A stretch of DNA of 64,000 nucleotides from Nitrosopumilus sp. GTDB lineage: Archaea; Thermoproteota; Nitrososphaeria; Nitrososphaerales; Nitrosopumilaceae. A model generated the notes under the pieces. That model was not told the origin of the DNA. It searched no databases and saw nothing but the letters and a program-made list of their open reading frames with translations. This document shows positions 44,215 through 59,446 of this stretch, in pieces. The stretch covers positions 928,001 through 992,000 of the forward strand of contig OZ245003.1 of assembly GCA_965223425.1 (NCBI GenBank), in the 5' to 3' direction. How positions within the stretch are numbered: the first letter of the stretch is position 1; each line of letters opens with the position of its first letter. The position numbers and the translations under genes are program-made.

Positions 44215-44439
44215 TTTTAAAAAACATCAAACATAACTACACTAACAGTTAACGTGGCAGAAAAATTCTCAGATGATGAACCTGGCTAGGTATTAAGCAA
44301 CATGTATCAAAAAGTTCAAGACAACAAAAGCACAGATCAAAAAAAGAGCAAAACAAGTAATATATACAGGCCGTGAAGAAAATTATGAGATTAATCTAAA
44401 TTACGTAATGAAGAATTTTTTCTAAACTCAGAACTATAC

Positions 44440-45687
44440 CAGCTAAGCGAAATCTGCTCTAATTCGGGCCAAATCGGCTACAAAATGCAAACAGATCAAT
44501 GAGGGTACGACCCCATGATTTCTGTTGTTCACACAAAAAACCAGACAGGGCCGCGAACTGTTAAACAATCCACGCATATATGAAGACGTTGCAGACGGCG
44601 CCAAAAACATGCTTGCATGCGCCAACACATCAGACAGGTACAACGCAACGTTTGGACCAGATGATCTGAACTGCGGCATGCTAAAGGCTGCCACCATGAT
44701 TCTTCTGTAGCAGATGCGCAAAGGCGAAGGCACAAACGCTGCAGTACCCCGTCTGACAGGTGGATTGCATCGGCAATCAAGGGAATTGAGCAGGATGCAA
44801 TCCAGCACACGCTTGAAGGCCAGATAGCAAGGCATCTTGAAACCCTCAAAAGACTGGGCAGGTTTCCAAAAAAAGGACTGGACATGGCAATCGACTTGCA
44901 CCTCATACCGCGCTATGACAGGGTACCGGGGGCGGAGCTGACACGTTCCAAATACAAGAACGGAACCAAATACTTTGAGCGTTACATGAGTCCAGTGCGT
45001 AAATGACAAGATGCGTATCGTTCTTGCCGCATCATACCTGAAGATGCTTGAATCCGTGCCTGATTACGTGGATGCCGTCCTCAAAACCATGGCAGGGATG
45101 GGGGCATCAGGATACACCTGGCGTTGCTTGACCGTGAGTTCTTCTCAGTTGATGCGATAAGCAAGCTGCAGGAAAACAACGTAAAGTTTCTGATGCCGTG
45201 CAGGAACACGTACAACGTGGTGGCCGCCTGCGAGAGTTTGCACAGGGGAAAAGAGGAAAGATCTCAGGGAACGTAATTGAAAACAACCTGGGTTCTGCTG
45301 CTGAATATTCCATGATAATAACTGACAGAAAAAAGGCCAAAGACTCTGATGACCCAGAGGGAGGTATACATCGGGTTTGCAACAAACCATCCCGCAGTCA
45401 GGATCGAGGTCTATGCCAAAAGATGGGGGATAAAGATGAGTACGGCAAAATCGAGGAGTGCAGGGCCAAGACACGGATCACAGACATGGAATCGCGGATG
45501 CTGTGCTTTTACCATTCTCGGGTATTGTACAATGAATGGGTGATTGTCAGGGCACTGCTTTCTGATGGCACTGAAAGGCAGAGTGTCATGGCCATGCTGA
45601 CGTTTAAGGTGCAGCTGGAATCGCTTCCCATACGCCAATCCAAACCGCCTACATGATCTCAGGCTTGGGACACATTTCGCTTAGCTG
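44440..45687 (+). mobile_element. ISH3-family IS with frameshifted transposase
   Basis: Perfect 14-bp TIR cagctaagcgaaat / atttcgcttagctg. Transposase motifs are scattered over several frames: MAIDLHLIPRYD, LDREFFSVDAI..NVKFLMP, YAKRWGI. Confidence 0.85.
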
Positions 45688-45920
45688 ACCTCTGAAAAAA
45701 ATATATAAATACCAAAACAAAAGCATCAAGTTGTTGAGTCACACCTTTCAGTTATCTGCTTTCAAGAAGCCGTCGCTAGCCGTATTGCGCTTATGTCATT
45801 CCTGCAGTAATCTTGCCTTCCCTGCCACAATGTTGCCTGACATCGGGGGGGGGGGTGGAGGAAGGATTAGCAGCAGCAGTAATGGTATTGGGAGAAGGAG
45901 AGTACAGGAGAGTCTGACAG

Positions 45921-48900
45921 TTGCGACGATTGATAAAACCGCCGTTGCTTGCAACGACAACAACGACAGCAGCAGCAATAGCGGCACTTGTTCTTCTGAT
46001 TCCCCTTTGCATTCCCCTTGCTGATGCTGCGATAGATTCGCCTGTTCCAGTCGCCTCCTTTGATGACGGAGACACCGTCACAGTCGGCATGACAAACAAG
46101 ACATTTGACGAGCTTGACCAAGCACATGACATCACCACGGTAAGGATAGGCACCGGCACGTACGCCCTGGTCGTATCATTAACTGACTCAGGTGTCCAGA
46201 TAATAGACATTACAGATCCCGCAAGCCCCGTCCCGACTGCCTCCTTTGAGGACGGGGACACAGTCGAAGTCGGCGGGACAAACAAGACATTTGACAAGCT
46301 TTTCAACGGACGGGACATCACCACGGTAAGGATAGGCTCCAGTACCTACGCCCTGGTCGCAGCAACCCTTGACCACGGCGTCCAGATAATAGACATTACA
46401 GATCCCGCAAACCCCGTCCCGACTGCCTCCTTTGAGGACGGGGACACAGTCGAAGTCGGCATGACAAACAAGACATTTGACGAGCTTAGGCAACCATATG
46501 GCATCACCACGGTAAGGATAGGCTCCAGTACCTACGCCCTGGTCGCAGCAAACCTTGATGACGGCGTCCAGATAATAGACATTACGGATCCCGCAAGCCC
46601 CGTCCCGACTGCCTCCTTTGAGGACGGGGACACAGTCGAAGTCGGCGGGACAAACAAGACATTTGACGAGCTTGATGGCGCACGGGGCATCACCACGGTA
46701 AGGATAGGCTCCAGTACCTACGCCCTGGTCGCAGCATACTTTGATGACGGCGTCCAGATAATAGACATTACGGATCCCGCAAGCCCCGTCCCGACTGCCT
46801 CCTTTGAGGACGGGGACACAGTCGAAGTCGGCGGGACAAACAAGACATTTGACGAGCTTGGGAAAGCATTTGGCATCACCACGGTAAGGATAGGCTCCAG
46901 CACCTACGCCCTGGTCGCAGCATACGTTGATGACGGCGTCCAGATAATAGACATTACGGATCCCGCAAGCCCCGTCCCGACTGCCTCCTTTGAGGACGGG
47001 GACACAGTCGAAGTCGGCGGGACAAACAAGACATTTGACGAGCTTGATGGCGCATTTGGCATCACCACGGTAAGGATAGGCTCCAGTACCTACGCCCTGG
47101 TCGCAGCATACTTTGATGACGGCGTCCAGATAATCAACATTACGGATCCCGCAAGCCCCGTCCCGACTGCCTCCTTTGAGGACGGGGACACAGTCGAAGT
47201 CGGCGGGACAAACAAGACATTTGACGAGCTTGATGGCGCACAGGGCATCACCGTAGTGGATATAGGTGCCAGCACCTACGCCCTGGTCGCATCATACGTT
47301 GATGACGGCGTCCAGATAATAGACATTACCAATCCCGCAATAGATCCCCCCAGGTTCGTCTCAGCCGAACTAGACGAATTAACTGGTGTGCTGAGCGTCA
47401 CCTTTGACAAGACAATCGACGCATCCAGCGTCGATGCCACAATGTTCCACATAAGAGAGCCCGAATCCATCACGGGAGGAGTGACCCTGTCTGCACCGGA
47501 GCTTGACACTGCCGCTATTGCTACTACTGACGGCACCGCGCTCTCATTTACGCTGACTGGCCCGAACCGCGACGCAGTCATCGCGCTAGATGACCCGCAG
47601 CTGGAGATAGGGGAGGGCGCCGTGGCCGACGCCAATGGCACCAAGATAACTGCAGCCTTTGATATACGGACTGCCAGGTTCGCCGAGTCTTTTGCTTTTG
47701 GGACGATAGATAATGGTGCCAGAGCCATCGCCTTCTCAAATGACGGCCTGAGGATGTTCCTGGCAGGCATCAATGGTGATTCTAACGCATACCAGTACGC
47801 CCTGCCTGCGGCATTTGACGTGTCAGGTGCCAGCCTTACCCGCTCTGTTACGCTTTCAGACGCTCCTTTCATAAACGGAATCGCCTTCTCAAATGACGGC
47901 CTAAGAATGTTTACGGTCAATAGGTTAACTGATACCGTATACCAGTACGACCTGCCTACAGCATTTGACGTGTCAGGCGCCAGCCTTGCTCAATCCCTCA
48001 ACATCCAATCTCAGCAGACAGGCCCAACTGACGTCGCCTTTTCAAACGACGGCCACAGTATGTTCGTGATAGGGGCTTTCGAATATAAGATAGACCGGTA
48101 CGACCTGCCTACAGCATTTAACGTGACAGGCGCCGAACACGTCGGCGTTTTCTCATTAGAACAAAGGATAGAGGGTAATGTGTATGGCCTTACCTTCTCA
48201 AACGACGGCCACAGGATGCTCGTTACATATGGACTGGGGGACTTCGCAACCAACGACTACAAATCCGTACACCAGTACGATCTGCCTGCAGCATTTAACA
48301 CGACAGGCGCCAGCCTTGTCGGCACCTTTGACCTCTCTCCACATGCGCCGAGATTGAGAGGCACCGCCTTCTCAAATGACGGCCTTGGGATGTTCAATAT
48401 AGACTCCTCTAACAGTACCGTACACCGGTACGACCTGAGGCTGCTCTACGACATAAACAGGCAGCCAGTCGCAGAGGCAGGCCCAAACCAGCACGTGCAG
48501 GAAAGAGACACGGTGACCCTTGACGGGACCAACTCGGCGGATCCTGATGACGGCGACACCACCCTGACGTACTCGTGGTCCCAGACATCCGGCTCCCCTG
48601 CCGTATCCCTGACAAACGCCAACACAACAAGCCCCACATTCACTGCACCGCAAACCGGCAGTACTGCCGCCCTAGAGTTCACGCTTACGGCAAGCGACTC
48701 CTCCTTGTCAAACGGCACTGACACGGTAACTGTCACAGTCTACGACGACCAGACAGTCTTTGCCAGGTCTGCCACGTACTATGAAAACCACGGCATCCTC
48801 GGCATAACCTTCAACAGGGACATCGATAGACTGCCAGGTATTTTATTTGACTTGTTTTCTATCCGCGAGTCCGGCTCTAATTCTGGCGGCTCGGATCTTG

Positions 48901-51900
48901 CCTCCTCTGAATGGCTGGAAAACACGGCAGCGCGCAGCACGATGATCTTCATGCTTGACCCGTCCACGGATGACGCAGTCAGGGCTTTGACATCCCCGCT
49001 GATTGACATAGAGGCTTTTGCCGTGTCTGGCACAAATGGCATCCCATTTATGTACGACCAAGTCGAACTGCCAGTCGTCAAAAGCGGCGCATTTCTTCCG
49101 CGGGTAACCACTGCTGTTGCCTCGGCCCAAAGCGAGATCACCGTGCGCTTTTTGTCCAACGTCGACACGGACATAACCAACGGCACGGGATGGTTCGTGG
49201 GCGCCTCCGTGGACGTGGGCCTGGAAGAAAACCTTGCCGTAGAGTCAAACTCGGATCCCGGCGGGATGACAGACACCATGACGCTTGCGCTAAACGGCTC
49301 GCTGCCAACAGGATTCAGGTCAGGTGCCATCTTCCTTGACTACCAGAGGCCGTCTGATGACGGCACCGGCATCTTCAACGGCACCGAATACCTGGGCAGC
49401 ACCAACCGCATCTTGCTAACTGACGGCATACCACCGGTAATAGTCAATGCCAGCGCAGCTTCTCCAACTGCCACGTCAATAACCCTGACCTTCTCAGAGA
49501 GGATCACAGGCAAGTCTGATGCCGAAAGCTTTTCGCTCTCGCGTACGGCAGACAGCGCCACCACGACGCCGGTGCCTGCAGTGGTGTCGCAGGTGGAAGC
49601 CGGCTCATCCCCCACCATCACGCTTAACCTTAACGGCACCATCGGCAACAACGACCTGGTTATCGGCTACAACCGGGATCTGGGAGGCGACAGCAGCATG
49701 GCAGACATTGCAGGCAACCCCGTGGCAAGCTTTGCAGACATACCGGTGGCCACGCCGCCTGCGGATCCCGTTCTGCCGCCACCACCGGAAGACGACAGCT
49801 ACGCGATAGATTCGCCTGTTCCAGTCGCCTCCATCACTGAAGGCCAGACCCATTCTAACGGCAAGACATTTGACGAGCTTGACGGCCCACGGGACATCAC
49901 CACCGTGGATATAGGTACCAGTACCTACGCCCTGGTCGTATCAGACCGCGAGCTCACTCCTTTCAACGGCGTCCAGATAATCAACATTACCAATCCCGAA
50001 AACCCTGCCCCCGTCGCCTCTATCACTGACGGCCAGACCCATTCTAACGGGAAGACGTTTGACGAGCTTAGCGGCCCACGGGGCATTACCACAGTAACTA
50101 TCGGCACCAGTACCTACGCCTTGGTCACAGCATACTTTGACCAAGGCGTCCAAATAATCAACATTACCAATCCCGCAAAACCCGTCCCGACAGCCTCCTT
50201 TGATGACGGGGACACCGTCCCAGTCGGCAATGCAACCCGGACATTTCACGAGCTTCGAGGTGCACAAGACATCACCACCGTAACTATCAGCACCAGCACG
50301 TACGCCCTGGTCACAGCAGGACTTGACGACGGCGTCCAAATAATCAACATTACCAATCCCGCAAAACCCGTCCCGACAGCCTCCTTTGATGACGGGGATC
50401 GCGTCACAGTAGACAATGCAAACAGGACATTTGACGAGCTTGACGGCGCACAAGCCATCACCACCGTAACTATCGGCACCAGCACGTACGCCCTGGTCGC
50501 AGCAGGATTTGACGACGGCGTTCAGATAATCGACATTACCAATCCCGCAAAACCCGTCCCGACAGCCTCCTTTGATGACGGGGATCGCGTCACAGTAGAC
50601 AATGCAAACAGGACATTTGACGAGCTTGACGGCGCACAAGCCATCACCACCGTAACTATCGGCACCAGCACGTACGCCCTGGTCGCAGCAGGATTTGACG
50701 ACGGCGTTCAGATAATCAACATTACCAATCCCGCAAGCCCCGTCCCGACAGCCTCCTTTGATGACGGGGATCGCGTCACAGTAGACAATGCAAACAGGAC
50801 ATTTGACGAGCTTGACGGCGCACAAGCCATCACCACCGTAACTATCGGCACCAGCACGTACGCCCTGGTCGCATCATTAGATGACGACGGCGTCCAGATA
50901 ATCGACATTACCAATCCCGCAAACCCCTTCCCGACAGCCTCCTTTGATGACGGGGACACCGTCAAAGTCGGCGGGACAAACAAGACATTTGACGAGCTTG
51001 ACGGCGCACGGGCCATCACCACCGTGGATATAGGTTCCAGCACGTACGCCCTGGTCGCATCACTCACTGACAACGGCGTCCAGATAGTCGGCATCTCGTC
51101 AAGATCTATTACAAACCAGCCCACTGTAGCCCCAACCCTCGTATCTGTTGAAAGGCACGACCCTGCCACACAGAGCACAAACGATACCACCCCGACCTTC
51201 AGGGCAACCTTCAGCAAGGCAGTAACCAACGTGGACACATCAGACTTTGAGACCGCAGGTGATGCCACAGCGACAGTCTCTGCTGTCACCCCGGTATCTG
51301 ATACGGTATACCACGTGGAGGTAAACGTGACTGCAGACGGCATAGTCAACCTTGGCATTGATGCAGGACACAACATCCAAGATGCCGCAGGCAACTCCCT
51401 GTCCGGTACTGAGCCTACCGATACAGACGAGCCATACACCATAGATACTGCTCCGCCAACCCTCCTGGCCGTTACAAGGATACACCCTGCAGCAGAAAAC
51501 ACAAACGATCGCAACCCGATCTTCAGGGTCATATTCGGCGAGGCAGTCACCAACGTGGACAAGGAAGACTTTGAGACCTTGGGCAATGCCACTTCAACAG
51601 TCTCTTCGGCCACCCGCATATTTGATACCCAATACGACGTGCTGGTAACGGTAACTGCAGACGGCACGGTCAACCTTGGCATTGATGCAGGACACAACAT
51701 CACAGATGTTGCAGGCAACGCCCTGTCAGACACGACACCTACCGGAGCAAACGAGCCATACACCATAGATACCGTTCAGCCAACCATCCTGTCCATTAAA
51801 AGGCATAACCCCCTCACAGAAAACACAACTGATTCCACCCCGACCTTCAGGGTAACCTTCAGCGAGGAGGTACTTGAGGTGGACAAGCCAGACTTTGCGA

Positions 51901-54900
51901 TCACAGACAGCAGCAGCGCCAACGCGACAGTCTCCACAGTCACCCCTGTACCCGGCAGTACGGTATACGACGTGGGGGTGACCGTAACTGCAAACGGCAC
52001 AGTCAGCCTTGTGCTTGCAGGATCACACTATATCATTGATACTGCAAGCAACTCCCTGTCTCCTGCGGATCCGCCCGTCAGCGAATCATACAACGTCTCC
52101 CTCCTCCCGCAGGCAGAAAACCGGCCTCCGACAATCGACCTAACCGGCGTTAACCCTGCAACTGCAGAAAGGTACGTCGCGTATACAGATGCCGGGGCAG
52201 CCTGCACCGATCCTGACGGCGATACCACAATGCTTGCCAGCTCCTCCAATGTGGACACGGACACAGTATCTTTGCCGGCATCTCCTTACCGGTACACCTA
52301 CTCGTGTACAGACCAACACGGGCTTGCCGCGACAAACAAGACCAGACTCGTCAGTGTGGAGGATACCGTGAAACCTGTGATTACCCTTATCGGCCCGGCA
52401 TCAGTACCGCTGACAGTGGGCGACACATACACGGAAGAAGGGGCAACCTGCACTGACTCTGGCCGTCTGCTTGGTGCTGCCAGTATCGGCGGCGCTACGG
52501 TGGACACGGCTGTCGTCAACGAGTACGATGTGGTGTATGCCTGCTCAGACGGGTACAACAACGCTATTCCGGTAACCAGGACCGTAACTGTTACAGAGCC
52601 CACGCCACCACCACCACCACCACCGGACGTCAACGTCCCCCCATCTGCGTCAATCAGCGCGCCTCCCCGGGCAGCAGAGGGAACGCAGGTAACCCTTGAC
52701 GGGAGCGGCTCTGCTGACACTGACGGCACCATACAATCATACAACTGGACTGCCAGCAACCCGGCAGTAGCCATCACCGGCAGCACCCAGCCAACTGCAT
52801 CATTTATTGCGCCCCAGGTCACAGAGGACACTTTTCTGGCCATCACGCTGAAGGTAACTGACGACGACGGCGCCACAAACTCTGCACAGCACAACATGAC
52901 CATAACCAACGTAAGCCCGCCACCTGACGACAGTGCCGCCCCGACGTTTACTGCCAGGACCGGCCCTGCCACAAACCAGATAACTGTCACCTTCTCCAAG
53001 AACGTCAACAGCACTGCTGACTCCCACGCAGCATGGGGCGTGGCAGGAAGCACGGTCACCGCAATCACCGGCCTTGACGGGACAGGCAATACTGCAACCC
53101 TGACGCTGCAAAGCCCGGTACAGCCGCCTGATGCAACGCCTGCCGTAACATACAATGCCGATGCGGGGAGCGTCTCAGATGCGGCAGGCAACGCGTTAGC
53201 TACTGCAACTGTCACCGCTACTGCGGGACATCCTGCAGGTCTTCACATCCACCTGATCGGCGATGCCTTCCTATACCACACATACGGGGAACCGTACACC
53301 GACAAGGGCGCCCTGTGCCATGACGCAGACGGAAACGACATAACTGACACCGGCGACTATGAAACCCTGCCGTACCTGAATCAGACGCAGACAATAAACG
53401 CCACCCTTCATGCAGATACCGTTCTTAATTTTACCCACCAATCCCAAAACGAGTACCGCCCCTTTGATCCGCAGGAGGTAACATACAAGTGTGCTACCTC
53501 GCCGTCTGAATTCGTAGAGGAGTCCAGGCAAGTAGCCCTGCGTGATGACACACCTCCTGAAATCCGACTAAACGGGCCACGCGACGTGGATCTGGAGATA
53601 GGCGAGACATTTGAGGAGACTGCCACATGCACTGACGCTCCTCTCAAATACCAGACAGAACTTCTAAACGCCGCATTTTATCTGACTTTTCGCATCTCTT
53701 TCCTCCCTGACGGGTACCAAGACACCGCAGGAGAGCACACGATAAGCTACACATGTTCGGACTCTAAAGGCAACGACGCAGAGGATACAAGCAGGACGCT
53801 TCATGTAGGCACGCCTGACAACACGCCACCCGTGCTTGCAGTCAACCCCGGCATAGTGACCACCCTGGCAAACGGCACGCATGTCGTACGGCAGGATGTC
53901 GGCTTTGCAGCAGCAGGTGACGGCGGCGGCCTGCAGTCCGCAGTATCATGCACCGATAACAGGGACAGCACCCCTGCAATCACGCTGGATCCTGCCACGG
54001 TGGACACCTCAGTTAGCGGCGCCCACACCATAACGTACTCCTGCACGGATGCTGCCGGCAACCCATCTAATGATATAACAGTAACCTGGGATTTCGGTCC
54101 TGCAGCCCCCGTGCTTGCAGTAACGCCCGCAGACACCCAAGTCACGCTGGCACTCGACGCGTCATACGAGATCCCCGCAGCATCCTGCACAGACCACAGG
54201 GACGGCGACATCACCGGCACCGGGATTGTAACTGTCATCTCGTCTGGAGGCCAGCCAGTCGACGAAATAGACACCTCCTCTGCAGGCACATACGGTATAA
54301 CGTACTCCTGCACGGACTCTGATGACAACACCTCAGAGCACAACGTGACAGTCACAATCCTGCCTGCCGTAGTTGACAGCACGCCGCTTATCGTAGTGCT
54401 AAACCCGCCTGAAATCATATTTGTTCCAGTCGGGGGCAGCTTTGCAGATGCTGATACCGGCGCCCTCTGCATTGATGGCCAGGGCAATATCATAGAAGGC
54501 AGAACCACCGTGGATGCCACCGCACTTGACACGGCCGTTCTTGGCAACCACACCGTGACGTACTCCTGCACGGTTTCTGAAGAAAACCCCCAGTCTAGCA
54601 CCATATCAAGGACAGTCAGCGTGTACGGATTCACCGTAAACGGAAACATCGCCGACTTTGCAACTGACATCACCACCTCTGATGACTACGAGGAAGGCAT
54701 AATCCAAAACATTACGAATATTGAGAATCCATACCAAAGCATAAAGTATTACGATACAGCCGGGCAAGACACCGACTCTTTTGACAATCAAACACGCCCG
54801 GCAGGAACCTATACCGTACAGTATACCGTGTCTACCCCAATGTCGTCCCCGCCCATAACCTACACCATCACAGAGACAGTAACCGTGGTAAACGCCACCA

Positions 54901-57695
54901 CGCAGCCAGACGGCAACACGCCCCCAATTGTGGCAATCAGCGTAGTACCTGAAGTAGAGGCAGCAGAGGGAACGCTGGTATCCCTTGACGGGACTAACTC
55001 GAGGGATGATGACGGCACCATATCATCATACGCGTGGACCACCGACGATGCGTCCATCGCAATAACTGATGCTGACCGGCCAACTGCATCATTTACGGCG
55101 CCTCAGGTCACAGAAGACACTCCTCTGCTCATCACGCTGCGTGTAACTGACAACGAAGGCGCTCCAGGCTCTGCACAGTATACCCTGATCATAACTGACA
55201 GCGAGTCTCCTGTAGTACCTGACACCACGCCTCCAACATTTACGGTAGACGGCCACACAGGCGACTTTGAGACGTCCCTAACAGAAGGCCAGACCTACAG
55301 GAACGGCAAGATAGATAACATCAACGAGACTGGCAGCCATCCGACCAGCACGGAGATAAGGTACTACAGCGGCACCGGCGATGTCATCACCACCACTGAC
55401 GAAAACAAGATCAGCTCCATTAACAATACCATGCCTGCCATCGGAGGCTACACCATACAGTACCGCGTCTCTGACTCGGCCGTTTCACCAAACACCCACA
55501 CAATCACAGAGACACTCACCGTGCGCGCACCTGCCACGGTAACCATAGGGGCAATCGTCTCGACTACCGGCTCCATCTCGTCACTTGGCATACCTGCAAA
55601 TGACGCCATACACCTGGCAGTAAATGACTTTAACGACAGATACCTTGCGCCAAAGGAGACCTCATGGAGGCTTGCAGTGTCTGGGTATGATGACGGGTCT
55701 ACTTCTGAGGGCGCAATTGCAGCACTGGAACTGCTTGCAGGCAGCAACATAACCTCCATTGTGGGGCCCCTCACAAGCGATGCGCTGTCTGCAGTAAAGG
55801 GCCACGCCCTGTTTGATGAGCCGCCAAGGCTTGCCATAAGCTACGCATCCACTGCGCCTGCGGAGGATCTCAAGCAGAAAGACGACCGCGTCTTTAGGAC
55901 AGTCCCTGATGATTCCAACATCGTCAGGGTATACGTCAGCCTCTTTGAGGCAGACTCTGTGGATTACGTGATTCCGGTGTTCCGCAACGACGCGTGGGGG
56001 ATAGCACTGAACCGGACCCTTGCAGATGAAATTGATGATCATAACAACAACAACAACAACAACAACGAAATAACCGTACACGGCGGAATACTGTACGACC
56101 CTGACACCGTGTCACTTTCTGCCAACACAACGCTTGCCTTGCTGAATGACACGCTAAGTCGGGATTCCGTCAGTGAAAAGGCCCCCGCAGTGGTGGTGTT
56201 CGGATTTAGCGAGACCCTTGACATACTCGACGAGGCTGCAGCCACTGCAAACCTGCCTGCAGCAAAGTGGTACGGTAGCGACGCCGTGGCGCCATCAAAG
56301 CTGCTTGAGGGTGATACCCCACAGGACGAGAATCGCAGGGCATTCCTTGAGCGCACCGACTATAACGTGCTCACCCTTGCAATAGACGAAAACGAGGCAA
56401 ACAAGAGGATAGACAGCTCTGTGGACAACGCTGACGTATACTCTTATGCGGCATACGACGCAGTATACATACTCGGCACTGCCATACACCTCAACGGCGG
56501 CCCTGCAGGCAATATGGTCAACGAGGGCCTGATTGGCAACATCGCGCAGGTAGCAGACAACACAAACGGGCACTACACAGACCCTGCCATGGGCAACACC
56601 GAGCTCAACGAGTACGGCGACCTGAAGCAGGCTGATTACTTTGTCCTCTCCCTTGATCCTGGCAACGACAGAACCCCCGCATCCTTTGAGCCAGAATTCC
56701 GGTATGATCACTCATCAGGCACCCTTGGGAGCCTTGTCTCCTCTGGCGGCGGTGGCAGCAGCGGAGACGTCTCTGCCCCCTCAATCCGCACGGGCTTTGA
56801 TGCAAACCAGTACCCCCTGGTATACGACGGAGTAAAGTACGGCCCTGACACGATTGACTCTCCCCACACTGCCACGGTACGCGCAGGCAGCGGCGAGAGG
56901 CTTTTCAGCACCCTCACAGTATACGAGGACGGCGGGGCGCAAAACGTGCGGCACGTCGACATGTTTGTCGCACACGACGGCAGGACAATACACAACGACG
57001 GCACGGAAACCCACGTGACATACGATTCAGGCAACGTCCGGATAACTGATCCGCACGGCCTGATTGCCAGCGCCACTGTGGATGCGTCTGCCATTGATGC
57101 CACAAAGGCGCAGTTTGAGTTTGCCATAACCTTTGCCAAGAAGGTTCCGCTCTCTGACGTGCTGTACCGCCTGTGGGACACCAGCAGAAACGCGCTTTAC
57201 ATCCACCTTGAGGACGCCCTTGTGGTGTCTGAGGGAAGGAAAGGCGGCAGCAGCAGTGGCGGCGGAGGCGGTGGTGGCAGCGGAGGCGGTAGCAGCAGCA
57301 GCAGCGGAGGCGGCAGCAGCAGCAGCAGCAGCAGCAGCAGTACCGCCACCCCAGCCACCGGCAGCGGCAACGGCACAACAACAACAACCACCACCACCGC
57401 TGGCAACGGCACCGCAGCTGACACTGCAGACAAGCAGCAGCAACAACAACCCCGACAGGGCTTTACCGCAGAACAGCTTGACACCCTAAAGCAGTGGGGC
57501 GGATTTGCGTCCCAGTCCGCATCTGACTCGCAGCTTTTAGCCCAGTTCGGAATAGAGGGCACCAGCATCCCCGCATACTTTAAGCAGACAGCAAAGTGGT
57601 TCCTCGATGCAGATGACGGCGATGGCGGCCTGACTGCGCAGGAGTTTGTCGCAGCGCTGTCGTACCTCGGGCAGCGCGGGCTGCTGCTAAACTAG
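45921..57695 (+). CDS. Giant (3924 aa) secreted/surface protein: beta-propeller repeats, PKD/Ig-like arrays, type-1 periplasmic binding domain, C-terminal thaumarchaeal surface motif
   Basis: Hydrophobic signal peptide, LVIVD-like repeats, AFSNDG repeats, TLDG.NS.D PKD motifs, DUF5011-like repeats (YSCTD), IVGPLTS..ISYASTAP..FRTVPDD, and C-terminal IPAYFKQTAKWF..EFVAALSYL. Visibly GC-richer than the backbone. Confidence 0.92.
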   Translation: MRRLIKPPLLATTTTTAAAIAALVLLIPLCIPLADAAIDSPVPVASFDDGDTVTVGMTNKTFDELDQAHDITTVRIGTGTYALVVSLTDSGVQIIDITDPASPVPTASFEDGDTVEVGGTNKTFDKLFNGRDITTVRIGSSTYALVAATLDHGVQIIDITDPANPVPTASFEDGDTVEVGMTNKTFDELRQPYGITTVRIGSSTYALVAANLDDGVQIIDITDPASPVPTASFEDGDTVEVGGTNKTFDELDGARGITTVRIGSSTYALVAAYFDDGVQIIDITDPASPVPTASFEDGDTVEVGGTNKTFDELGKAFGITTVRIGSSTYALVAAYVDDGVQIIDITDPASPVPTASFEDGDTVEVGGTNKTFDELDGAFGITTVRIGSSTYALVAAYFDDGVQIINITDPASPVPTASFEDGDTVEVGGTNKTFDELDGAQGITVVDIGASTYALVASYVDDGVQIIDITNPAIDPPRFVSAELDELTGVLSVTFDKTIDASSVDATMFHIREPESITGGVTLSAPELDTAAIATTDGTALSFTLTGPNRDAVIALDDPQLEIGEGAVADANGTKITAAFDIRTARFAESFAFGTIDNGARAIAFSNDGLRMFLAGINGDSNAYQYALPAAFDVSGASLTRSVTLSDAPFINGIAFSNDGLRMFTVNRLTDTVYQYDLPTAFDVSGASLAQSLNIQSQQTGPTDVAFSNDGHSMFVIGAFEYKIDRYDLPTAFNVTGAEHVGVFSLEQRIEGNVYGLTFSNDGHRMLVTYGLGDFATNDYKSVHQYDLPAAFNTTGASLVGTFDLSPHAPRLRGTAFSNDGLGMFNIDSSNSTVHRYDLRLLYDINRQPVAEAGPNQHVQERDTVTLDGTNSADPDDGDTTLTYSWSQTSGSPAVSLTNANTTSPTFTAPQTGSTAALEFTLTASDSSLSNGTDTVTVTVYDDQTVFARSATYYENHGILGITFNRDIDRLPGILFDLFSIRESGSNSGGSDLASSEWLENTAARSTMIFMLDPSTDDAVRALTSPLIDIEAFAVSGTNGIPFMYDQVELPVVKSGAFLPRVTTAVASAQSEITVRFLSNVDTDITNGTGWFVGASVDVGLEENLAVESNSDPGGMTDTMTLALNGSLPTGFRSGAIFLDYQRPSDDGTGIFNGTEYLGSTNRILLTDGIPPVIVNASAASPTATSITLTFSERITGKSDAESFSLSRTADSATTTPVPAVVSQVEAGSSPTITLNLNGTIGNNDLVIGYNRDLGGDSSMADIAGNPVASFADIPVATPPADPVLPPPPEDDSYAIDSPVPVASITEGQTHSNGKTFDELDGPRDITTVDIGTSTYALVVSDRELTPFNGVQIINITNPENPAPVASITDGQTHSNGKTFDELSGPRGITTVTIGTSTYALVTAYFDQGVQIINITNPAKPVPTASFDDGDTVPVGNATRTFHELRGAQDITTVTISTSTYALVTAGLDDGVQIINITNPAKPVPTASFDDGDRVTVDNANRTFDELDGAQAITTVTIGTSTYALVAAGFDDGVQIIDITNPAKPVPTASFDDGDRVTVDNANRTFDELDGAQAITTVTIGTSTYALVAAGFDDGVQIINITNPASPVPTASFDDGDRVTVDNANRTFDELDGAQAITTVTIGTSTYALVASLDDDGVQIIDITNPANPFPTASFDDGDTVKVGGTNKTFDELDGARAITTVDIGSSTYALVASLTDNGVQIVGISSRSITNQPTVAPTLVSVERHDPATQSTNDTTPTFRATFSKAVTNVDTSDFETAGDATATVSAVTPVSDTVYHVEVNVTADGIVNLGIDAGHNIQDAAGNSLSGTEPTDTDEPYTIDTAPPTLLAVTRIHPAAENTNDRNPIFRVIFGEAVTNVDKEDFETLGNATSTVSSATRIFDTQYDVLVTVTADGTVNLGIDAGHNITDVAGNALSDTTPTGANEPYTIDTVQPTILSIKRHNPLTENTTDSTPTFRVTFSEEVLEVDKPDFAITDSSSANATVSTVTPVPGSTVYDVGVTVTANGTVSLVLAGSHYIIDTASNSLSPADPPVSESYNVSLLPQAENRPPTIDLTGVNPATAERYVAYTDAGAACTDPDGDTTMLASSSNVDTDTVSLPASPYRYTYSCTDQHGLAATNKTRLVSVEDTVKPVITLIGPASVPLTVGDTYTEEGATCTDSGRLLGAASIGGATVDTAVVNEYDVVYACSDGYNNAIPVTRTVTVTEPTPPPPPPPDVNVPPSASISAPPRAAEGTQVTLDGSGSADTDGTIQSYNWTASNPAVAITGSTQPTASFIAPQVTEDTFLAITLKVTDDDGATNSAQHNMTITNVSPPPDDSAAPTFTARTGPATNQITVTFSKNVNSTADSHAAWGVAGSTVTAITGLDGTGNTATLTLQSPVQPPDATPAVTYNADAGSVSDAAGNALATATVTATAGHPAGLHIHLIGDAFLYHTYGEPYTDKGALCHDADGNDITDTGDYETLPYLNQTQTINATLHADTVLNFTHQSQNEYRPFDPQEVTYKCATSPSEFVEESRQVALRDDTPPEIRLNGPRDVDLEIGETFEETATCTDAPLKYQTELLNAAFYLTFRISFLPDGYQDTAGEHTISYTCSDSKGNDAEDTSRTLHVGTPDNTPPVLAVNPGIVTTLANGTHVVRQDVGFAAAGDGGGLQSAVSCTDNRDSTPAITLDPATVDTSVSGAHTITYSCTDAAGNPSNDITVTWDFGPAAPVLAVTPADTQVTLALDASYEIPAASCTDHRDGDITGTGIVTVISSGGQPVDEIDTSSAGTYGITYSCTDSDDNTSEHNVTVTILPAVVDSTPLIVVLNPPEIIFVPVGGSFADADTGALCIDGQGNIIEGRTTVDATALDTAVLGNHTVTYSCTVSEENPQSSTISRTVSVYGFTVNGNIADFATDITTSDDYEEGIIQNITNIENPYQSIKYYDTAGQDTDSFDNQTRPAGTYTVQYTVSTPMSSPPITYTITETVTVVNATTQPDGNTPPIVAISVVPEVEAAEGTLVSLDGTNSRDDDGTISSYAWTTDDASIAITDADRPTASFTAPQVTEDTPLLITLRVTDNEGAPGSAQYTLIITDSESPVVPDTTPPTFTVDGHTGDFETSLTEGQTYRNGKIDNINETGSHPTSTEIRYYSGTGDVITTTDENKISSINNTMPAIGGYTIQYRVSDSAVSPNTHTITETLTVRAPATVTIGAIVSTTGSISSLGIPANDAIHLAVNDFNDRYLAPKETSWRLAVSGYDDGSTSEGAIAALELLAGSNITSIVGPLTSDALSAVKGHALFDEPPRLAISYASTAPAEDLKQKDDRVFRTVPDDSNIVRVYVSLFEADSVDYVIPVFRNDAWGIALNRTLADEIDDHNNNNNNNNEITVHGGILYDPDTVSLSANTTLALLNDTLSRDSVSEKAPAVVVFGFSETLDILDEAAATANLPAAKWYGSDAVAPSKLLEGDTPQDENRRAFLERTDYNVLTLAIDENEANKRIDSSVDNADVYSYAAYDAVYILGTAIHLNGGPAGNMVNEGLIGNIAQVADNTNGHYTDPAMGNTELNEYGDLKQADYFVLSLDPGNDRTPASFEPEFRYDHSSGTLGSLVSSGGGGSSGDVSAPSIRTGFDANQYPLVYDGVKYGPDTIDSPHTATVRAGSGERLFSTLTVYEDGGAQNVRHVDMFVAHDGRTIHNDGTETHVTYDSGNVRITDPHGLIASATVDASAIDATKAQFEFAITFAKKVPLSDVLYRLWDTSRNALYIHLEDALVVSEGRKGGSSSGGGGGGGSGGGSSSSSGGGSSSSSSSSSTATPATGSGNGTTTTTTTTAGNGTAADTADKQQQQQPRQGFTAEQLDTLKQWGGFASQSASDSQLLAQFGIEGTSIPAYFKQTAKWFLDADDGDGGLTAQEFVAALSYLGQRGLLLN
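46030..47340 (+). repeat. Seven tandem 186-bp (62-aa) coding repeats, propeller module 1
   Basis: acatttgac recurs at 46101, 46287, 46473, 46659, 46845, 47031 and 47217. Confidence 0.95.
49803..51090 (+). repeat. Seven tandem ~186-bp coding repeats, propeller module 2
   Basis: The same repeat recurs at about 49866, 50055, 50241, 50427, 50613, 50799 and 50985; the module opens with the same gcgatagattcgcctgttccagtcgcctcc as module 1. Confidence 0.93.
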
Positions 57696-58061
57696 GGACG
57701 CCAAAAGGCACCACCTGCCAGTCAAAGACAGATGCCCGCCGCAGATCGCCGGGAACGCGGCCAGGATCCGCTTGTCTGGCACCGCGCACACAAGGTTTTA
57801 TCAAACCCCTGTGCAGTCCCCAGTTGAGCCTGCAACCGGATTGCGGCACATCATCATCATCATCCCATATGCGTTGTTTTCCCTGGCCGTTCCAAACAGC
57901 AATATTCTTTTCAAGATATTTGGCTGCAGTATTCTAGATGCTTTGCAGGCTGCCAAGAGGGGAGACTCTCCACTGCAGAATCACACACGCCCAGAGTCTG
58001 CAGGATCGAATCACTGGTTACAGTTCAGAGGAGAACCTGGTACTTTTGTGAAGGCTTTCTC

Positions 58062-58159
58062 CAGCTAAGTGAAATGAAATGTGCCCTAACTAAGGAACCA
58101 CTCTCATGTGCAGAACCAACCGCTGATCTGATCTCAGATTTGAGGCATTTCGCTTAGCT
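58062..58159. mobile_element. ISH3-derived MITE (family C), right TIR interrupted by an IS5/ISL2 element
   Basis: cagctaagtgaaatg ... catttcgcttagct; the sub-terminal tgatctcag also matches the right end of the IS at 45654-45687. Confidence 0.85.
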
Positions 58160-59228
58160 AGACCTGATCTGTAATTACTAACAAAACCTGACGTTTCACC
58201 AAACTGATTCCTTGTTACGTCATGGTATCACAACGAAATCGCGCGTCTTCAGCTTGTAGTTGATCAGGCCGCAGATTATGGCATTGATGCAGTCATACCT
58301 GCACAGTCTGTTCCTAAACTTGTCCCTCATTATGCCGAATTTCTTGATCCTTGAGATGACATGCTCCACCAGTACCCTTGCTCTGGACAGCTCCCGGTTG
58401 AATTCCTTCTGCGCATCATCAAGCTTGCCGCCCCTTGGCTTCTTGTACGGGATCAACACGTCAAGCTCCGGATAGTCCTTCCGTATCCCCTGATATCCAA
58501 GATCCACAAGGATTTTCAGATCTCCTGAAAGTTTTGGGCACTTTGACTTGAAGACAGAATAGTCATGCCTGCTTCCAGGCGAGTGCGGCGTCCTGTGCAT
58601 AATCATGCCGTCTGCGTTTACAACGTACTGTGTCTTGACCGTATGCATCTTCTTTTTGCCCGAATAGTGTGTCTTTCTCATGGACTTGTTCTTGGGCCTT
58701 TGAATCTGCTGCTCTGATGCGTCAATGATTGCGTGCAGCCCAGGAAAGGCGCATGCCAGCTCCCGAATGTCTGATATCTGTCTGGTCTCTGCAAGCTTTT
58801 TGTCAGGCAGTGACAGTGCAGATTTTATGGCAGGCTCCATGTATCGTATGCCGGTGCTGACATTTGACTGGCTCAGGTCAAAAAGCAGGCTCAGGAGACC
58901 CTGTGTGACGTATGTCCTGTAGTGGATCAGTGCCATCAGGATTCTGTCCCTGCGGCAGTGTTTGAACCTGCGCCCTGCGCCGATGTCTCGGATTCTGTTA
59001 TTCCTGGAGAGGCGTCTTTCCTCCGTTATCTTGTACTGTGACTCTATCTCCGGGCACAGATCATAAAACTGCCCGGGGGTAACTCCCGTCATGGACAGGA
59101 ATAATTTTGGTTTTTTTGCCAGCTTTTTGTGGTTTAACATGACATGCATGGCATTTTGCCTGTTTTGGATCTAGTTGCGAACAAATATCTGGAAAATGGT
59201 AAAATTATGTTAATAACGGATAGGGTCT
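58160..59228 (-). mobile_element. IS5-family (ISL2-group-like) insertion sequence, 3-bp TSD GCT
   Basis: Imperfect TIRs agacctgatctgtaatta vs rc agaccctatccgttatta (14/18); gct at 58157-58159 and 59229-59231. Confidence 0.85.
58220..59149 (-). CDS. IS5/ISL2-type transposase (HTH_Tnp_4 plus DDE_Tnp_4-like)
   Basis: IIDASEQQIQRP, YSGKKKMHTVK, VDLGYQG, PYKKPRGGKL and RVLVEHVISRIK motifs. Confidence 0.92.
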   Translation of the reverse strand: MHVMLNHKKLAKKPKLFLSMTGVTPGQFYDLCPEIESQYKITEERRLSRNNRIRDIGAGRRFKHCRRDRILMALIHYRTYVTQGLLSLLFDLSQSNVSTGIRYMEPAIKSALSLPDKKLAETRQISDIRELACAFPGLHAIIDASEQQIQRPKNKSMRKTHYSGKKKMHTVKTQYVVNADGMIMHRTPHSPGSRHDYSVFKSKCPKLSGDLKILVDLGYQGIRKDYPELDVLIPYKKPRGGKLDDAQKEFNRELSRARVLVEHVISRIKKFGIMRDKFRNRLCRYDCINAIICGLINYKLKTRDFVVIP

Positions 59229-59446
59229 GCTGTATACACAGATATTTTCATAATATGCTGGTCTTGCCAATTGACTTGTAGTTGATTCTGCAATACTAGC
59301 AAATCCGTTACGGATGACAGCATTGGTGCTCCTAGTAAAGACGCTATATCATCCCAAATGCTTCAACTGCAGATAATTCCAATTCTTGGTATTCTACGAC
59401 ATTGTAGCTAGAATCAATCCCATGCATCTTCTTCCTAATTATCTGA

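Follow-up and report, generated by a model that had tools for sequence, protein, structure and literature searches.

The 64,000-nucleotide stretch of a Nitrosopumilus sp. genome analyzed here (the window; G000:C1:928001-992000) contains a 14.8-kb GC-rich block that has the structure of a composite transposon with two unlike ends. Its left end belongs to a decayed insertion sequence (IS), its right end belongs to a 99-bp miniature transposable element with inverted repeats (MITE), and a single giant gene for a putative secreted surface protein lies between them. Transposition of the whole unit as one element is well supported, and we regard it as probable. The complete account, in which a non-autonomous composite was mobilized by a transposase acting in trans, came from a donor within the same genome and was later frozen by an IS5-like insertion, is likewise considered probable. 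Positions are those of the window unless they refer to C1, the larger of the two contigs of the genome (2.51 Mb, GC content of 0.41); the second contig, C2 (123 kb, GC content of 0.47), differs in GC content from the chromosome.

Anatomy of the unit and recurrence of its signature

The unit and its target-site duplications span 44435-59237, which are to the base the limits proposed in the initial annotation, and the transposon proper occupies 44440-59232, between the two copies of TATAC. The GC content is 0.53 to 0.60 in the block versus 0.34 to 0.41 outside it. The end motif CAGCTAAGCGAAAT is found four times in the window when up to 2 mismatches are allowed, at 44440(+), 45674(-), 58062(+), and 58147(-), versus 0.45 occurrences expected by chance, and none of 100 shuffled sequences reached four. 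These occurrences form two inverted pairs, the first bounding a 1,248-bp IS and the second the 99-bp MITE. The cargo is bracketed by the same terminal inverted repeats, with the outer ends in inverted orientation.

The left target-site duplication, TATAC (44435-44439), was identified from the sequence and from a genome-wide comparison of end pairs. It is followed by the decayed ISH3-like IS (44440-45687, forward strand), which has perfect 14-bp terminal inverted repeats, CAGCTAAGCGAAAT, and whose outer end is the left end of the composite. The 5' region of the cargo (45688-45920, forward strand) contains an A/T-rich TATA-like stretch that begins at 45691 and recurs in every paralog examined, and an 11-base poly-G tract at 45845-45855. 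It leads into the giant gene (45921-57695, forward strand) and a 3' flank (57696-58061, forward strand) that is common, up to the MITE, to two sibling units, p535 and p729. The first 98 of the 99 bp of the MITE lie at 58062-58159, with the left end CAGCTAAGTGAAAT and the inner flank TTCTC. The right end of the MITE, ...ATTTCGCTTAGCT, is split by an IS5-like element of 1,069 bp (58160-59228, reverse strand; AGACC...GGTCT) that encodes a 309-amino-acid transposase at 58220-59149(-). The second GCT of the IS5 duplication and the last G of the MITE terminal repeat occupy 59229-59232, the last MITE base being 59232, and the right target-site duplication, TATAC, follows at 59233-59237.

The left junctions read TATAC, IS, ACCTC, and the right junction reads TTCTC, MITE. 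Neither the IS nor the MITE is flanked by a duplication of its own, the inner flanks being ACCTC and TTCTC. Virtual removal of the IS5-like element together with one GCT restores a perfect MITE end, ...ATTTCGCTTAGCTG, followed by TATAC, so that the outer 5-mers are identical and a single duplication of the length typical of the family surrounds the whole unit rather than the single elements. The pairing of an IS with a MITE of about 100 bp, their shared terminal repeats, their inner flanks, and the outer TATAC copies are all as the initial annotation had described them.

The limits of the IS5-like element (58160-59228) are fixed independently of the outer 5-mer, because all five copies in the genome agree in length (1,068 to 1,069 bp), ends (AGACC...GGTCT), and a 3-bp duplication, which is GCT in the window copy. 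These copies are about 99% identical. The transposase matches Pfam DDE_Tnp_4 above the cut-off (E value of 8.6e-31) and NCBIfam IS5_4 below it (E value of 3.1e-27, 95.7 bits, cut-off of 140). In transposase type, short duplication, and terminal inverted repeats, the element conforms to the IS5 family. It splits the MITE end with its own 3-bp duplication. Its insertion postdates the composite, as had been proposed.

The signature of the window unit recurs across the genome, in which we located 35 left and 30 right ends with at most 1 mismatch; matches with 2 mismatches were judged to be mostly noise (about 0.45 expected per 64 kb). Nine of the 35 local left-right pairs of ends share their outer 5-mer; in the background, made up of unrelated pairs separated by more than 30 kb, the match was 1 in 1,002. 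The nine matching local pairs consist of five simple MITEs and four long structures. Among end pairs longer than 1.3 kb the outer 5-mer is identical in 4 of 15, and binomial arithmetic on 4/15 versus 1/1,002 gives a chance of about 1e-9. These four are 535292-547957 on C1 (12.7 kb, TTTAA), 755104-760633 (5.5 kb, CTCTT), 792900-794483 (1.6 kb, TCTAA, with two complete MITEs), and the unit of the window itself (TATAC; 13.7 kb not counting the IS5-like element). In two more cases, an IS at 449435 and the pair at 728928-739403, the match extends over 6 bp.

Other giant genes bracketed by ends of the CAGCTAAGCGAAAT type, which the initial annotation had proposed to look for, are present at two loci. 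At p535 (C1:535292-547957), the stretch C1:535531-547956 aligns with the cargo at window positions 45695-58159 at 91.9% identity over 12.5 kb, and the same MITE (C1:547856-547957) stands downstream with the same inner flank and an identical inner junction, ...GGCTTTCTC/CAGCTAAGTG. The left bound of p535 is a different MITE of the same family, and both outer 5-mers are TTTAA. When the flanks (2.2 kb on the left, 1.7 kb on the right) were compared with five relatives (G007, G009, G012, G003, and G017), the two matches overlapped by exactly 5 bp in every one, and the sequence ...CTTTTGG TTTAA AATTAAATATTGA... with a single TTTAA was found in all five. This locus is a textbook empty site of a 12.7-kb MITE-cargo-MITE unit. 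It complements the family-length duplication and the recurrence of the signature in supporting the proposal that the window unit moved in one event by means of one IS end and one MITE end.

The unit at p729 (C1:728928-739403) has the same right MITE, and the alignment with the window runs through this MITE to C1:739400. Its flanks are contiguous within a few nucleotides in five of five relatives; the putative duplication, TTGGTT, is obscured by an extra 88-bp element and a variable spacer at the site. At least three members (the window unit, p535, and p729) thus share the downstream MITE junction yet sit in separately duplicated target sites, and in all three the GC content rises from about 0.38 to 0.55 precisely where the outer ends lie. 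The elements at their left ends differ, being the dead IS in the window and, in the other units, MITE-A plus a MITE of a second family (MITE-B), or a fusion of both. It seems that any compatible end upstream of the gene sufficed.

Further observations concern the small elements and end pairs at these loci. MITE-B elements are about 140 bp long, with ends CAGTCTTCCCAGAAGTAC similar to those of an intact second ISH3-like IS described below. They lie directly upstream of the promoter region in three giant genes and downstream of a fourth (C1:535386-535525; upstream of C1:2196512; in part at C1:728946-729053; downstream of the giant gene at C1:2490791). Beside p729 lies a third small element with inverted repeats (C1:728838-728925, about 88 bp, ends CCGTAGTGTCTTTG), which is absent there in five of five relatives. 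The pair at C1:755104-760633 holds an IS630-like transposase (DDE_3) and open reading frames (ORFs) without assignment, and the two complete MITEs at C1:792900-794483 surround a 298-amino-acid ORF with a weak DDE match; the right flank of the latter pair is not conserved in the five relatives tried, one of which has a weak match elsewhere. An apparent left end at C1:1030824, beside another giant gene, was rejected, since paralog p2227 has the same sequence but lacks its CAGCTAA part.

Terminal elements, transposase supply, and the insertion site

The transposase frame of the window IS is broken, and the element is 97 to 98% identical to other genomic copies. A search of 80 further genomes of the genus detected DNA related to the IS in six. 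The relative G018 has a full 1,255-bp copy with 82% identity, the same 14-bp ends, and a 5-bp duplication, CCGTA, and this copy encodes an intact transposase in a single ORF of 380 amino acids (L029:1532-2674, reverse strand). The G018 IS has two ends of different internal sequence; the MITE ends match them, and the outer ends of the composite are one of each of the two types. Of the left-right end pairs in the genome, 14 span no more than 120 bp and are MITEs, 5 of them with 5-bp duplications. The 99-bp element is short, non-coding, and multicopy, with the terminal repeats and the duplication length of the parent IS, which are the properties of a MITE.

The G018 transposase matches NF033541 (transpos_ISH3) with an E value of 1.2e-33 over positions 11 to 298 of 298, and the next family, IS4, follows at 2.4e-5; the score of 116.6 bits is below the NCBIfam cut-off of 225. 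The fragments of the window IS match transpos_ISH3 with an E value of 3.8e-6, and the translated fragments of this IS and of the copy at C1:841989-844609 match it collinearly (E values of 3.8e-6, 1.1e-11, and 6.9e-7). Pfam alone gave almost nothing for the fragments and was unable to classify them. On these sequence matches the fair name is "ISH3-like," ISH3 being by far the best-matching family though under the curated cut-off, and the earlier designation "ISH3-type" holds for the nearest family only. Elements of the ISH3 family measure about 1.2 to 1.5 kb. A 5-bp target duplication, described in one account as typical of ISH3-type transposons (PMC7002104), is found for the present family as well, among others at the IS-length copy C1:1309674-1310750.

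A second, abundant ISH3-like IS is present in the genome. It encodes an intact 428-amino-acid transposase (C1:842026-843397, or L005:2026-3397; NF033541, E value of 8e-39), has the ends CAGTAGTTCCCAGATGTAGATTT and a 4-bp duplication, ATGT, and is nested within a copy of the dead IS; about 25 near-full-length copies with 95 to 98% amino acid identity were detected by tblastn. It is unlikely to have been the transposase source for the composite, since only CAG is common to its ends and those of the unit, and the identity of its protein is about 30%. A rescue of the decayed IS copies by programmed frameshifting is also unlikely, given that the breaks vary by copy, that in-frame stops occur, and that the G018 homologue is one ORF.

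The following sequence of events would account for the unit. An ISH3-like transposase acting in trans, from a copy then still active or since lost, would have bound the outer ends of the defective 1.25-kb IS and of the 99-bp MITE, and everything between them (the IS, the 12.4-kb giant gene together with its promoter region, and the MITE) would have been excised together. The unit would then have been inserted downstream of carB, in the short spacer that separates two convergent gene remnants, with duplication of TATAC. Another locus in the same genome is the most likely source of the window copy, because p535 is mostly 97.6 to 100% identical and has the same MITE junction. Later, the IS5-like element inserted within the last four bases of the MITE end. 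The unit is now immobile, because its right end is split by this element and no cognate transposase is left.

The target itself can be recognized to the left of the unit. The 3' remnant of a DUF6036 nucleotidyltransferase gene, comprising its last 43 codons (44297-44424, forward strand; identified from genome matches and by Pfam DUF6036, E value of 5e-13), stops 11 nt before the insertion point. Matches to it at 77 to 88% identity occur in 11 of 150 further genus genomes, and an intact 169-amino-acid ORF ending in ...YEINLNHVMKNFF is present in G048 and G151. In these two genomes the flanks of the window unit (to 44426 and from 59240) are contiguous. On a larger scale, carB is followed directly by a metallophosphoesterase gene, 8 to 420 bp away, in four of five relatives (G007, G003, G009, and G012), and the fifth, G010, is missing the phosphoesterase gene. 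No giant gene lies at the carB-phosphoesterase site in any of these five relatives, whose carB is 79 to 84% identical to that of the window. Between the two genes, an ORF of about 140 amino acids with two CxxC pairs occurs in G007 (L017:1100-1500), G003, and G012 and is missing in G000 and G009.

The assembly was checked with short contigs from four public runs. Contigs bridge the left flank and the IS in three samples (X1; X3 and X4; X5) and the IS5-like element and the right flank in two (X1, X4). No joint skipping 44440-59232 appears among the 15 listed of the 35 joints from run contigs, and the inner junctions (IS-cargo, cargo-MITE, and MITE-IS5) are not among the run-contig pieces listed. 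An exact-match scan of metagenome contigs gave 0 matches for a 25-nt left-flank stretch and a 23-nt stretch across the cargo-MITE junction.

Several observations weigh against composite transposition as outlined here. No working transposase for these ends, and none able to act on them, was found in this genome: nine of nine IS-length copies are broken, with frame changes or in-frame stops relative to the G018 protein, and the majority consensus of the nine has no ORF longer than 129 amino acids on the transposase strand. The left ends of the three units differ, and separate capture events must therefore be assumed. Among the paralogs of the cargo, we found no donor copy in which the IS stands beside the promoter or the inner flank is ACC. 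At the insertion site, the carB-phosphoesterase intergenic DNA of G007, G003, G012, and G009 is not alignable to the immediate flanks of the window unit. The check for an empty site suggested in the initial annotation was answered in part: the flanks adjoin each other in G048 and G151, with a spacer of 20 and 18 nt, respectively, versus the 15 predicted from a single TATAC, and the spacer sequence has diverged, so that a single TATAC cannot be recognized with confidence. The support from the runs consists of short contigs only, and X1 may be the sample from which the assembly was made.

The giant cargo gene and its family

The sole cargo of the unit is, as first described, one GC-rich gene of 11.8 kb. 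It is a single ORF of 3,924 amino acids with a TTG start and a GC content at third codon positions (GC3) of 0.62, recognized as an ORF and by its Pfam matches. The predicted protein begins with a signal-peptide-like N terminus and contains five Bact_surface_Ig-like domains, three K319L-like PKD domains, PKD_4, weak LVIVD/SGL matches, and an ANF_receptor (type 1 solute-binding-like) domain at residues 3227 to 3579. Two arrays of 186-bp (62-amino-acid) repeats resemble LVIVD units, and the C-terminal tail is conserved. These features suggest a secreted multidomain protein with a surface or adhesive role; the label "adhesin" would rest on domain content only, namely, generic surface-protein domains and the signal-peptide-like start. 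The host is an ammonia-oxidizing archaeon, as its genome carries an archaeal amoA gene. For sponge-associated Thaumarchaeota, a comparison of symbiont genomes reports enrichment of transposases and LVIVD surface-protein domains in three genomes (PMC7848895).

The genome contains 11 giant paralogs of 1,484 to 7,841 amino acids, with GC contents of 0.55 to 0.57, that belong to one family with a common promoter region, a signal-peptide-like start, and, in most members, a common C terminus. A twelfth giant gene has a GC content of 0.53. The giant surface-protein family makes up about 5% of the genome. Counting the window copy, the genome has nine matches to the C-terminal 830 residues of the cargo, of which seven are full-length and two are partial; the eight besides the window copy are 89 to 98% identical. 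Among the 80 other genomes of the genus there is no close homologue, the best C-terminal match having 46% identity over about 170 residues. In a large protein collection, only five proteins (2,158 to 6,867 amino acids) match this C-terminal region; two of them belong to this genome, and the other three are 96, 92, and 86% identical.

Comparison of the window copy with p535 shows 97.6 to 100% identity over most 500-bp bins and about 98.5% across 55188-58160, including the MITE. This is interrupted by patches of 79 to 90% identity, among them window positions 49688-50687, 51188-52187, and 54188-55187, where identity is 79 to 86%. Such mosaic patches suggest that the giant genes exchange segments or undergo gene conversion with one another.

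The GC3 of the giant genes (0.61 to 0.62) is close to that of the IS transposases (0.64 to 0.65) and far from that of host genes (0.23 to 0.34). On this basis, an older foreign origin of the whole giant family and its mobile elements is plausible. The comparison of GC and codon usage that had been suggested thus sets the cargo (0.62) apart from the host (about 0.3), but no donor lineage for the giant family was identified.

The leaders of the giant genes have features in common. All paralogs examined become alignable at one base, window position 45691 (TCTGAAAAAAATATATAAATACC; window plus eight paralogs), and upstream of the equivalent position their sequences belong to no fewer than four unrelated classes. 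The end of the window IS lies only 3 bp before this alignment start. A poly-G tract of 11 to 16 bases occurs on the coding strand 48 to 153 nt upstream of the ORF in 12 of 12 giant genes, with lengths of 11, 13, 14, 15, 12, 14, 13, 14, and 11 in nine aligned leaders, and 13 of the 34 G/C runs of at least 9 bases on C1 lie at giant genes. These tracts are at window positions 45845-45855 and at C1:535681, 711921, 729211, 1030985, 1218504, 1341530/1341607, 1951544, 2116817, 2196344, 2227822, and 2500285. They look like slipped-strand (phase-variation) tracts, with the reservation that homopolymer lengths in assemblies can be wrong. Poly-G/C runs are also found at the very start of DNA methyltransferase-like ORFs (e.g., ...DPPFNKG...) at C1:1623314, 1643967, and 1832258, an arrangement reminiscent of phase-variable restriction-modification genes.

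Alternative origins, known systems, and implications

The initial annotation presented the unit as delivered by a foreign donor and as a route of spread among symbiotic archaea. Direct horizontal delivery, with this copy as the primary import of a composite from a GC-richer donor organism, is unlikely. The GC3 values, the lack of any homologue above 46% identity in the 80 other genus genomes, and the presence of the IS family in six of them, which indicates that it moved or was inherited across species, are in line with such an import. It is nevertheless difficult to reconcile with 11 paralogs of the same composition in this genome and with a nearest relative that is itself an in-genome copy, 97.6 to 100% identical over most of its length and joined to its MITE by the same junction. 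Moreover, the donor lineage was not found, with only the five collection proteins matching the C-terminal region, and IS-carrying genomes such as G018 lack the giant family. Given the same in-genome relatives and the lack of a close homologue in the 80 other genus genomes, delivery from a foreign donor and spread among symbiotic archaea are not supported in the form that the initial annotation gave them.

That paralogs exchange segments, as seen in the 79 to 90% patches within a pair otherwise 98 to 100% identical, and that four of six full-length IS copies lack a duplication, which suggests IS-mediated rearrangements, would fit a different history. A lone IS would first have inserted at TATAC, and cargo and MITE would then have been copied in from another IS-cargo-MITE locus by homologous recombination or gene conversion, at one side through the IS body and at the other through short terminal homology. 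We consider this very unlikely: the homology available on the right is only about 14 to 35 bp, and two findings would be left unexplained, namely, a sibling whose left-end elements differ and whose 5-bp empty site is precise in five of five relatives, and matching 5-mers in 4 of the 15 long pairs. It would be more surprising still if IS and MITE had inserted independently at a resident giant-gene locus and the two TATAC copies matched by chance. Only 5 bp match, in an A/T-rich context, and the right 5-mer becomes visible only after removal of another element; against these stand the background match of 1 in 1,002, the IS5 limits fixed independently by five of five copies, the lack of own duplications at both elements, the absence of the cargo from the syntenic site of relatives together with contiguity of the immediate flanks elsewhere, and the GC step at the outer ends. 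Composite transposition of the whole unit remains the preferred explanation.

Its mechanism is familiar from bacteria. In Acinetobacter, class 1 integrons are found between two MITE copies, and MITE-297 copies flank a 76-kb region; the passages concerned describe such MITE pairs as comparable to composite transposons (PMC6382973, citing Gillings et al. 2009). The window unit resembles these structures in having cargo between miniature, non-autonomous ends that require a transposase in trans. It differs from them in combining two kinds of ends, one from a dead full-length IS and one from a MITE, in its archaeal host, and in its cargo, which is one 11.8-kb surface-protein gene instead of resistance genes and has several siblings, one with a precise empty site. 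Tn5, as summarized in PMC10969869, consists of two IS50 copies, of which IS50L is defective. There too, two IS-derived ends act as one element with one outside duplication and one flank may be defective, whereas in the window neither flank encodes a working transposase and one flank has only 99 bp.

Among archaea, the DDE transposase of the present family has transpos_ISH3 as its best match and shares the 5-bp duplication with haloarchaeal ISH3 as the latter is characterized in the relevant part of PMC7002104. It departs from haloarchaeal ISH3 in its score, which lies below the curated cut-off (116.6 versus 225 bits), its thaumarchaeal host, and the decay of all copies in this genome. A fosmid of the soil group of Thaumarchaeota with amoAB flanked by IS copies was interpreted, in the portion of PMC3379541 that treats it, as a possible composite transposon. 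Both cases thus concern IS-flanked genes of an ammonia-oxidizing archaeon. As described in that portion, the amoAB case depends solely on a pair of full IS copies that are nearly identical, synteny with other genomes is stated for the flanked region, and a duplication or an empty site goes unmentioned; here, in contrast, duplications, empty sites, and a MITE end are documented. Among the matches listed from the literature searched on archaeal and thaumarchaeal composites and MITEs, there was no archaeal IS-plus-MITE composite. MITE-ended composites are documented in bacteria, mainly around resistance genes, and are barely described in archaea. The present case stands out for its occurrence in an archaeon, its hybrid ends of dead IS and MITE, its giant cargo, the repetition of the process, and a sibling whose empty site is precise to the base.

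The composite implies that two non-coding or dead ends are enough to move 12 to 14 kb, and that this happened repeatedly for one giant surface-protein family. This would offer a concrete mechanism for the multiplication of very large surface-protein genes in an IS-rich archaeal genome, and the G018 transposase together with CAGCTAAGCGAAAT ends defines a testable transposase-end pair. Taking the observations jointly, we tentatively raise the possibility that giant genes have been multiplied and relocated as cassettes by composites formed from any flanking ISH3-like ends, have diversified patchwise, and were imported as a package from a GC-richer member of the habitat, a reading that we hold with considerable reserve. 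If it is true, cassettes with their own promoter and a variable tract of 11 to 16 G would constitute a transposon-driven system of cell-surface variation, and the foreign codon signature common to cassettes and IS would mean that the whole package came from such a member of the habitat.

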